A DNA stretch of 62,419 nt, filler included, from Catajapyx aquilonaris (taxonomy: Eukaryota): NCBI GenBank assembly GCA_000934665.2. It is 2 parts of 2 records of this genome, joined end to end, with 100 filler letters (N's around TTAATTAATTAA, not from the genome) between each part and the next. Parts side by side here need not be neighbours in the genome. Positions count along the whole stretch, not along the records: positions 1 to 31,017 come from JYFJ02004603.1; 1 more part is not named here. One strand, 5' to 3'. The translations under genes and the position numbers were made by a program. Positions 25,801-28,800 of the stretch are shown one piece after another. The notes under the pieces were generated by a model. It was not told the DNA's origin and made no database searches. It was given only the letters and a program-made list of their open reading frames with translations. Within the stretch, counting starts at the first letter, position 1. Every line of letters begins with the position of its first letter.

Positions 25801-28800
25801 GACCTTTAAGCTGAAAAGTGGTACAAACCCTGTATGCTACTGCACAGCAAAAATAAATTGCGTTTAATTCAGAGTTCATACGAGAGGTACAACGCTTCTA
25901 ATAATCATAATTTACCTCAAATATGCAATACTCTGACAGGAAAAAAACACTAGAAAAAAACTCCAAAGTGAGTTATGATTTCTGCTTGTTTGCGTGACAC
26001 CCTACTTTTTCACGCTACTGCCACTTGCCAAAAGGTACATTCCTCGAGGACGTAAAATAAAAAAGACTCAGGATAAACATGCCTCGCTGAAGACTTGGGA
26101 GATCGAAGAACAAAAAGTGGGCACAAGAGAGCGTTGCCTTTGACACGAGAGGCATTTGTATCCTCTTGTAGGAAAATCCCAGGAACTCCCAGCGTTTCTT
26201 TCAGACCACGTACGATCATCAGTGATCAATAACGCAATGTGGATTTAGTCTGTCTCAGAAAAAGGCAAGGCAATTTTTGTCCTGTAGTGTAGCAGCCTTC
26301 TTTGCTATACTTTATCAACGTAGAACCACAGATTGCTCAACGGCGCCGTGCATGCAGGAATATGTGATTTACAGCCGCTACTAACGCTACTTTTGTGCGC
26401 AAGGATACACTATGGAACGGCGCTTCAATAACTTAACGTGGAGGTGTAGTCATAATCGTTTGTAGCAGGTGCATACTATAGTCCATGATAAACTTCAGCA
26501 CACGTTGTCATATACAGAAAAATGCTCAATAGTTCCGCATATTTCCTGGTGGCTTTGAGCCAATAGTATAACTTTGTGAACCGACGTGACGGTGGGGAAG
26601 TGGGGTACTTTAATCTCGTGGAAATAACTCAGGGGTGTTGTATTCGCTTTGGTAGACATGATAGCCCTGTCGATCACACGTCTGTTATACACCACATCTC
26701 AGCGAAATGATGTGGTAAAAGCGTTGAATGAAGGACTCAGGTTTCCTGCGAGTTTGCAAGGTCATATATAGCAATTTAATGGAATGTATATACTTACATG
26801 TACGAGCTTTTAAGACTCATTGCTTTTTTTGTGAATTATGAGCTCATTTAGATTGCAAGTATATTTTAACACCTCCGAATTTAGTGACCACTTACATTAA
26901 TAGGAACGTACCATTTAGCGTAAGCTGCACTGTGTGGACTTCCAAAGCATACGCCATTTTAAAATATACATGTTTACATAATGGCTGGTACTGCATTGTG
27001 GACACACGTGATCGATGGAACAAATATACATAAATTGCTCCTAAAGTGTCCCGACTATGATTAAAAGTGAAACTTCCAAATCGCCCTCTGGCCCATCTGC
27101 AATACTGCAACATTTCCTTCCAGGAGTTCAACTTTTCGAAACGTGCGCAGTTTAGTCCGCTTGGGCAAGCAGCGTCCTCGAGACCAAGAAGAGCAACAAT
27201 CGCTGCTGAACAGAGACGAAGACCACTCTGACGGCGGTACAGGAGGTAGGAGACGTCCCAGGGGCAGCTCGGAAGGGGCGTCGTCGATGCCGCAGAGACC
27301 ATTGAGTGCAGCCTCCAGTTGCTCGGACAACGAGAGCGTAGACTTGGTCGGAGGTCGCGACCAATCCAGGAGCATTAAAAGGTCCGCTTACCCTCACACA
27401 GCACTGTCCTCTAATTGAATTTTAAATATTCACGAGTGTTGTTGCAGGCTTCGATCGTTGTCCCAAACACCTCCGCCTGCTCTAAAGGCTCAGGACTTTC
27501 AGCTTTGCATCACTGTGATTGAAGCCAGGCAGTTGGCGGGACTCAATATGGATCCCGTTGTTTGCGTTCAGGTCGGGGAGCAGCGAAAGTACACTAGTGT
27601 CAAGGAGAGTACCAACTGTCCGTACTATAACGAGGTACGCTCTGCCAAATAAATTTTAGCTGAAACGGCAACACTGGAGAGGCCAATTGCTGTTCACTGC
27701 GACTTGGTGGGAAAAGCAGTGATTGGACGATTCAGTGATGCCAAATTATGTAGAGTTGTAGACCATACCATAAGAGAATGAACACGAATAAGTACTGTTG
27801 CATTAGCCTAAAAATTAAGAGTTACAGTATACTTACATTGACAACTATTGAAACACGTAGGATATTTGTCAATGTCGCACTGTTTCATTTTCTCATGGTG
27901 TGACACTCATGCTTTTTGGAATTTTTGATACTACAAATGTTACTTCCTTCCAGTACTTTGTATTCGACTTCCATATGCCACCGGTGATGCTTTTCGACAA
28001 AATCATCACTCTGACTGTAAGTACAAGTGCATGACAATGTGTTTCACACAGAACCTGGTGTATATTCAGTGGGGGATTAACAATGAGTGAATGAAGCCCC
28101 TGAGGGGACTCATGAACTAAACTTGAAAATTACTCGAAAGTCACGTCACGTGAATAATTTCGGCAGGTGCTTCATTCAAAGACGCTCATGCGGCAGGGAA
28201 CAGTAGTAGGACGCTTCAAGATCGGAATCAAGACGATTTATGACGCTCCCGGTAAATTTTGACTGCAATTCCACCGACCTCACCTTCCTTCACTGTCCTT
28301 AACCATTTTCAATGCTTTGCTTGCACTCCAACCGAAATTGTATGGAATGCCGGATTTTGGCCATTGAAGAAAAGCGACTTTATCAACTCCAGAGTACCTC
28401 ACTTCTGAAACTTGTCTATAACACAAACGTGCTATGCTGACTAACCAGACGTTTTGATATTGCTGTAAATTCCAAGGGAAAAGACGTGAAGGACTATTTT
28501 TCCTGACAATTGTTTCTTCAATCCCAGGTCCTCCAATCGCGGAACATTCTCAGGTCAAACAAAGTCCTCGGCAGCTTTAAACTAGACGTGGCGACAGTTT
28601 GGGCGCAGCCAGGTACGATAGTAAACGACTTGCAAATTAGGCGACTAGGATTGGGTGCACAGTAAAACTCGGTGTAGTCGTTTTGATCAACTTACTCTTT
28701 CCTAAAATATGCTTCAGATGTGTAGGCTGCTGTGTTAGTTGTGCTGCGCTCACCTGATTTATTAAACACTCTTCCGGACCTCTCTCTATCTCTCATAATG

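Follow-up and report, generated by a model that had tools for sequence, protein, structure and literature searches.

Does the otoferlin-like ferlin gene of Catajapyx aquilonaris carry two interchangeable versions of one piece of its C2B domain and, if so, how old is the arrangement and what could it do for the protein? The question is raised by two neighbouring exons, 8a and 8b, in a stretch of 62,419 nucleotides (nt) of assembly GCA_000934665.2, referred to here as the window, whose first part (positions 1 to 31,017) comes from record JYFJ02004603.1. Five short coding exons with canonical splice sites lie on its plus strand between 27448 and 29107, and they are numbered 6, 7, 8a, 8b and 9 as in an earlier note on this DNA. 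We consider it quite probable that the invertebrate otoferlin-like ferlin gene has an ancient mutually exclusive exon pair, of which 8a and 8b are the copy in this genome, and that the pair most likely provides two versions of the protein with a differently tuned membrane anchor.

Exon 7 (27954..28016, 63 nt, phase 0 to 0, flanked by ag and gtaagt) was recognised by its match to orthologues and is followed by exon 8a (28167..28251, flanks cag and gtaaat), an intron of 276 nt (28252..28527), exon 8b (28528..28612, flanks cag and gtacga) and exon 9 (28951..29107, 157 nt, phase 1 to 2, flanks aag and gtaagt, last bases GC), all on the plus strand. Both 8a and 8b have 85 nt and run from phase 0 to phase 1, and they belong to two types of segment, A and B respectively, that are described below. 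Their peptides are identical at 10 of 28 residues, a value not reached in any of 100,000 shuffles of one of them, and their DNA is identical at 40 of 85 nt. The matches at the first, second and third codon positions number 15, 18 and 6 of 28; as the third positions are at chance level and the positions that determine the protein are not, the synonymous sites are saturated, which argues for an old duplication under selection on the peptide. When exons 7 and 9 are joined through one of the copies (7+8a+9 or 7+8b+9), the 306 nt read as an open frame. With both copies included (7+8a+8b+9) the frame ends at a TAA at 28578-28580, and with neither (7+9) there is an early stop in exon 9, since 85 is a multiple of three plus one and double inclusion or double skipping shifts the frame. 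Homologous neighbouring exons of equal length and phase, each with its own splice sites, are the mark of tandem-duplicated mutually exclusive exons, and the frame shift with its early stops adds the non-viable joint inclusion and skipping by which mutually exclusive exons are also recognised. The tandem duplication, the common length and phase and the frame lock can be read directly from the DNA. The earlier note had described the length, phase and AG/GT sites of both exons, the paralogous peptides with 10/28 identity and the two kinds of stop; the translations proved exact and splicing in silico reproduced the stops, while the end of exon 9, which it had placed at 29108, lies at 29107.

Regarding the identity of the gene, tblastn with three full-length orthologues found only the first 360 residues or so of an otoferlin-like ferlin, at 19249-29107. 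Exon 6 (27448..27634, plus strand, with ag at 27446-27447 and gt at 27635-27636, within the tblastn coverage by orthologues) encodes the start of the C2B domain, and the frame enclosing it matches Pfam C2 with an E value of 2.3e-07. Exon 9 reaches at most 92% identity to insect proteins named otoferlin, which carry PF00168 (C2) and PF08151 (FerI). The succession of C2 domains and then a FerI motif, by which the ferlin/otoferlin-like branch is recognised, is present.

The two versions of the segment recur in the proteins of other species. Three protein searches and three cluster look-ups provided 114 other distinct segments from 381 proteins. In insects and crustaceans the marks of type A are His at position 3, Gly-Thr at 11-12 and Tyr at 25, and type B has Gln, Asn-Lys and Trp at the same places. 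The peptide of 8b shares 27 of 28 residues with the B segments of locust, damselfly (Ischnura X1), lobster (Homarus X1) and prawns. That of 8a shares 19-21 of 28 with insect A-type segments (19-20 with Ischnura X2 and Tribolium X2), the A copies of decapods being much further from it (12/28). NCBI isoforms X1 and X2 of equal length, with the 28-residue segment as their sole difference, exist for Procambarus clarkii (2059 amino acids, aa), Homarus americanus (1855), Ischnura elegans (2099), Rhopalosiphum maidis (2045), Nicrophorus vespilloides (2018), Tribolium castaneum (2024), Culex quinquefasciatus (2090) and both Limulus and Tachypleus (2050). The listed cluster members of tephritid flies, mayflies, Haliotis, Mytilus, Lingula, oysters and Musca likewise include both types. 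The X1/X2 pairs of arthropod otoferlin or otoferlin-like proteins (Tribolium, Ischnura, Homarus, Procambarus) have gene, segment and both types in common with the window. They differ from it in being annotation records, on which no discussing papers were found, and in that a Gly at an otherwise invariant Asp is unique to 8a of the window. None of the proteins examined holds both copies in frame, and two proteins of a marine catalogue, P0066 and P0101, are spliced exon 7/segment/exon 9 peptides with one type each.

The pair is also found in genomic DNA from other sources. Metagenome contigs scanned with an alignment of the exon 9 peptide gave 80 loci, to which tblastn was then applied with the reference segments and exons 7 and 9. 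This search for a conserved tandem pair, which the earlier note had proposed for arthropod genomes, detected an A-like plus a B-like exon in 12 of the 80 loci (L007, L011, L012, L013, L016, L018, L020, L021, L024, L025, L027 and L036). The A-like copy lies upstream in all 12, the same order as in the window, and in seven of them exons 7 and 9 also flank the pair. Every copy is bordered by AG and GT, and the exons measure 85 nt, 88 nt in the A copy of L007 or 82 nt in the B copies of six loci with a Lepeophtheirus-like peptide; each of these lengths is a multiple of three plus one, so that the frame lock is retained, and the introns between the copies range from 275 to 1239 nt. The 82-nt B exons, one codon shorter with the phase kept, were seen in L011, L012, L013, L016, L018 and L025 and also in L015 and L028, and their peptide is similar to that of the copepod Lepeophtheirus salmonis. 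In most of the remaining loci the upstream DNA is too short, the gene is another ferlin or there is no match. The fish-like loci L029 and L035 have, unlike the window, one exon between exons 7 and 9, and L035 has no room for a second; of the single 85-nt exon that the earlier note gave for vertebrate OTOF, the single exon fits these two loci. In L074 (689-985) exon 7, one A-like segment and exon 9 are contiguous and free of introns, as in RNA-derived sequence or an intron-poor organism.

The way in which the copies have diverged points to selection and to a considerable age. Exon 8a and its nearest A exon by tree path, that of L016, differ at 6 first, 4 second and 21 third codon positions, with 15 of the differing codons synonymous and nine not. 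The flanking introns (100 nt on each side) have 0.54-0.57 identity, the level of all distant pairs, and further A and B exon pairs follow the same codon-position pattern. Taken as a crude stand-in for the ratio of nonsynonymous to synonymous substitution rates (dN/dS), this pattern is far from what neutrality would be expected to leave. A maximum-likelihood tree of 49 segments and 28 columns has 26 of its 46 inner branches unresolved and recovers a B clade (support 88/91) with exons of arthropods, among them 8b, of a limpet, of Lingula and of seven metagenome-locus lineages, as well as an arthropod A clade (97/90) in which 8a, a centipede and one copy from a horseshoe crab are included; the single exon of vertebrates and the A-like copies of lophotrochozoans are at the unresolved base of the tree. 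In the approximately unbiased (AU) test, making a single clade of the five named lophotrochozoan rows, A and B types together, the outcome expected from a separate duplication, costs, for this group named after the tree had been seen, 27.25 log-likelihood units (p-AU 6e-05). Combined with the constant A-then-B order, the B clade across phyla and the AU result are most simply read as one duplication that would predate the split between arthropods and lophotrochozoans. With a Lingula B-type query, no sea urchin, amphioxus or acorn worm appears in the best 120 of 132 proteins (E <=0.001, 133 candidates). The supposition of the earlier note that the pair is old and maintained was borne out more broadly than it had been put, by isoforms in arthropods, molluscs and a brachiopod, by the 12 of 80 loci and by changes biased to third positions.

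Which part of the protein is exchanged can be seen from the fold. Top loop 3 (L3) of a type-II C2 fold is the loop that joins strands 5 and 6. A model of a 204-residue chiton fragment spanning C2B, with 45 aligned sequences, has a mean predicted local distance difference test (pLDDT) score of 75.4 and values of 81-95 over the domain. It matches the solved mouse otoferlin C2B (9qe2, 9se5 and others) with E about 5e-18 and a template modelling (TM) score of 0.67-0.69 on the query, and by sequence the homologous fragment matches solved otoferlin at E 5.8e-74. In this model the alternative segment comprises the last three residues of strand 5, a loop of eight residues, strand 6, a helix of six residues and two more residues, as the earlier note had rightly placed it. 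Exon 7, read from the aligned model, contributes strand 4, a short helix and the larger part of strand 5; exon 9 encodes strands 7 and 8 and then the start of the FerI region. The model of a 621-aa mosquito A-type fragment is weak (mean pLDDT 54.6, 46-70 over C2B) and, as a secondary-structure check only, shows the same order of elements.

In the part of the account of mouse otoferlin considered here (PMC12526402), C2B has no Ca2+-binding aspartates and a nanodisc is bound, free of Ca2+, by the long L3 loop's tip: L341 and L342 reach into the bilayer, with K339 and R343 in contact with its surface, while the convex side of C2B contacts C2G as well as the FerI motif. By sequence alignment to otoferlin, K339, L341, L342 and R343 are positions 5, 7, 8 and 9 of the segment, which are basic, hydrophobic, hydrophobic and basic in 8a, in 8b and in most of the 114 distinct segments. 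The mouse L3 is the homologous segment at the same fold position with the same kind of tip; in the same part of that account an alternative version of it was not found. The lipid/Ca2+-facing surface of the earlier note stands as far as lipid is concerned and not for Ca2+: as C2B lacks the aspartates and L3 inserts without Ca2+, the surface of the segment faces lipid, not Ca2+. Consistent differences between A and B are located at positions 3, 6, 10-12 and 14 (loop and its base) and at positions 19, 21, 22 and 25-27 (end of strand 6 and helix).

Under the reading that we prefer, each mRNA would take one of 8a and 8b, and products with both or neither would be useless or degraded. The swap between A and B would exchange the end of strand 5, the whole of L3, strand 6 and the short helix of C2B; both copies keep the basic/hydrophobic/hydrophobic/basic core and differ consistently around this core and in the strand and helix behind it. 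Given the shared core of the tip and the differences around and behind it, a retuned anchor is the most likely effect. The outcome would be two otoferlin versions with a retuned membrane anchor, perhaps also with retuned contacts between C2B and neighbouring ferlin domains, used in different cells or stages. The choice between A and B is presumably regulated and the variants presumably differ in function. More tentatively, and with rather less confidence than even chance would give, the pair could be a splicing switch that dates from at least the ancestor of arthropods, molluscs and brachiopods, maybe older, and that was lost in vertebrates, which have several otoferlin-like genes instead. It might then serve to equip a single ferlin with two different Ca2+-independent membrane anchors, of which one could be a fast synaptic form and the other a form for germ line or repair.

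Several devices could keep two such exons exclusive. The classical arthropod clusters of mutually exclusive exons, in muscle myosin heavy chain and Dscam1, consist of tandem homologous exons of equal phase, one per mRNA, old and conserved, and often use RNA pairing between a docking site and selectors. The window has the same tandem design, presumably also with one exon per mRNA, whereas docking/selector pairing was not found in it. A steric block, which calls for an intron of under about 60 nt, is unlikely: the intervening intron measures 276 nt in the window and 275-1239 nt in the 12 two-copy loci. Incompatibility of U2 and U12 sites was also discarded, all donors being GT and none of them, on inspection, showing the U12 donor consensus. 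A scan for inverted repeats around the pair returned eight short pairs. The best candidate hairpin (28088..28178, plus strand) has arms of 15 nt at 28088-28102 and 28164-28178 with 93% complementarity and would cover the 3' splice site of 8a plus its first 12 nt. Its fold has a z value of -2.70, with three of 200 shuffles folding equally well and one of 40 Markov shuffles giving an equal pair, and no counterpart to it turned up at the A exon in 10 further loci or at the B exon in 11. Competing RNA pairing was set aside as a general mechanism because the repeats are short and the best hairpin is private to the window; the introns of related loci are too diverged to align, and a hidden pairing element could still exist. 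Together with the weak polypyrimidine tract of 8a and the better one of 8b, the hairpin suggests, as a lead and not a finding, that 8b is the default exon and that 8a needs help.

A number of observations weigh against an ancient pair that is still in use here. Codon 20 of 8a (28226-28228) encodes Gly, where Asp is present in all 114 other distinct segments and is invariant in both alignments (38/38 and 45/45). The acceptor of 8a has the weak tract just mentioned, and the end branch of 8a (0.41) is the fourth-longest in the tree, which itself rests on 28 columns, with the AU-tested group chosen in hindsight. The isoforms of the relatives are mostly automatic NCBI models. Many groups have B only among the listed models: bees (14/14 scorable), ponerine ants (8/8), sawflies (15/15), Bombyx (9/9), Spodoptera (5/5), Danaus (3/3), Schistocerca (6/6), Macrobrachium plus Palaemon (15/15), Eriocheir (8/8), Penaeus (4/4) and Oratosquilla (2/2). 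Anopheles has A only (11/11 listed models), and a type missing from gene models is not necessarily missing from the genome. In the ant-like locus L001 (1828-5587) a B copy alone, without an A copy, lies between exons 7 and 9; the A copy has thus disappeared in at least one lineage, and Hymenoptera may have lost it, as the listed bee, ant and sawfly models would also fit. As for the Gly codon at 28226-28228, a lineage-specific change, a polymorphism or an assembly error could explain it. These observations could mean that 8a is dead or dying in this species, with 8b alone spliced and 8a just looking intact. The replaced Asp, the weak tract, a hairpin that could mask the 3' splice site, the long end branch and the loss of A elsewhere would all fit, and chance alone would leave 28 codons free of stops in roughly one case out of four ((61/64)^28). 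However, 8a keeps its exact length of 85 nt, its AG and its GT, as well as 19-21 of 28 residues of insect A-types, and its changes relative to the nearest A exon are concentrated in third positions (6/4/21). At the age that the synonymous saturation points to, a neutral copy would no longer have its frame or its similarity. We therefore regard a dead 8a as unlikely, and 8a is presumably spliced in this genome, judging from its sequence features.

The age and the role of the pair may also be read otherwise. Tandem exon duplication recurs, and separate duplications in each phylum could have converged, in which case the pair of the window would be younger than the split of arthropods and lophotrochozoans. 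The short alignment with its 26 of 46 unresolved inner branches leaves room for this, one copy from a horseshoe crab, Limulus X1, is not part of the B clade, and no supported branch unites the A-like copies of lophotrochozoans with the arthropod A clade. Against it, the B clade mixes exons of arthropods, limpet, brachiopod and metagenome loci with support 88/91, a single lophotrochozoan clade with both types is rejected (p 6e-05), and the A-then-B order holds in all 12 two-copy loci and in the window, which makes separate origins improbable. Alternatively, the pair might mainly set the dose of the protein, through purposeful joint inclusion or skipping that leads to degraded, frame-shifted mRNA, the difference between the A and B proteins being secondary. 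The early stops that follow from both combinations are the sole evidence for such a device, whereas both versions of the peptide have been conserved over very long times, which a pure on/off device would not need; the chance that dose is the main role seems very slight.

The surroundings of the five exons add some observations of their own. The 33 kb beyond exon 9 (29108-62419) have no more ferlin exons by tblastn with the same three full-length orthologues, and the remaining ones are elsewhere or past a very long intron. A stretch that is unread (X in translation) begins near 31074, downstream of exon 9. On the minus strand at 29410-30017, two open frames match the C-terminal part of a cytochrome P450 (Pfam p450, E 1.9e-34 and 6.7e-20). 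They lie just some 300 nt downstream of ferlin exon 9, on the other strand, and could be a nested antisense gene in the next ferlin intron or reflect an assembly join. Long simple or tandem repeats occupy about 220-560, 47007-47375, 50141-51242 and 53866-54249 of the window; the repeat content includes a trinucleotide run that is read as poly-Asn/Ile/Tyr and repeated units that show up as recurring peptides.

Regarding earlier work, no description of alternative C2B exons in any ferlin was found in full-text literature searches; paper supplements and the Drosophila catalogue of mutually exclusive exons could hold an entry. In the parts considered of the papers on Drosophila misfire (PMC1853072, PMC13751305) and of the ferlin phylogeny paper (PMC2923515) such exons are not described. 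In the parts considered of the papers on human tandem-duplicated exon substitutions (PMC9741552, PMC8373072), a homologous 3' coding exon pair is the only OTOF event named. This human event (PMC8373072, same part) is in the same gene family and likewise substitutes homologous, tandem-duplicated alternative exons for each other, but it concerns C-terminal exons of a vertebrate and not C2B. In dysferlin C2A variant 1 (PDB 4iqh; PMC2923515, in the part considered) the choice of an exon likewise alters one C2 domain of a ferlin; there, however, it is an alternative first exon with its own promoter and another C2 domain, in contrast to the internal tandem pair of the window. The pair is already in public NCBI gene models of many species and the type of device is textbook; what seems to be unremarked is a switch on the membrane-inserting C2B loop of otoferlin that is common to protostome phyla.

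The deafness protein otoferlin is the trigger of vesicle fusion in hair cells. Structures of 2025 present the tip of its C2B L3 as a Ca2+-independent membrane anchor, a role that few tests have addressed. Two natural forms of L3, with the strand and the helix that lie behind it, appear to have persisted in invertebrates over several hundred million years, so that two loops accepted by selection are available in genetically tractable animals such as Tribolium for a comparison of membrane binding, fusion speed and tissue-specific use. The pair would be one more ancient set of mutually exclusive exons common to protostome phyla, already present and unremarked in public gene models. If the ancient switch between two anchors is true, it would amount to a natural isoform-by-isoform experiment on the function of the C2B L3 loop in vesicle fusion.

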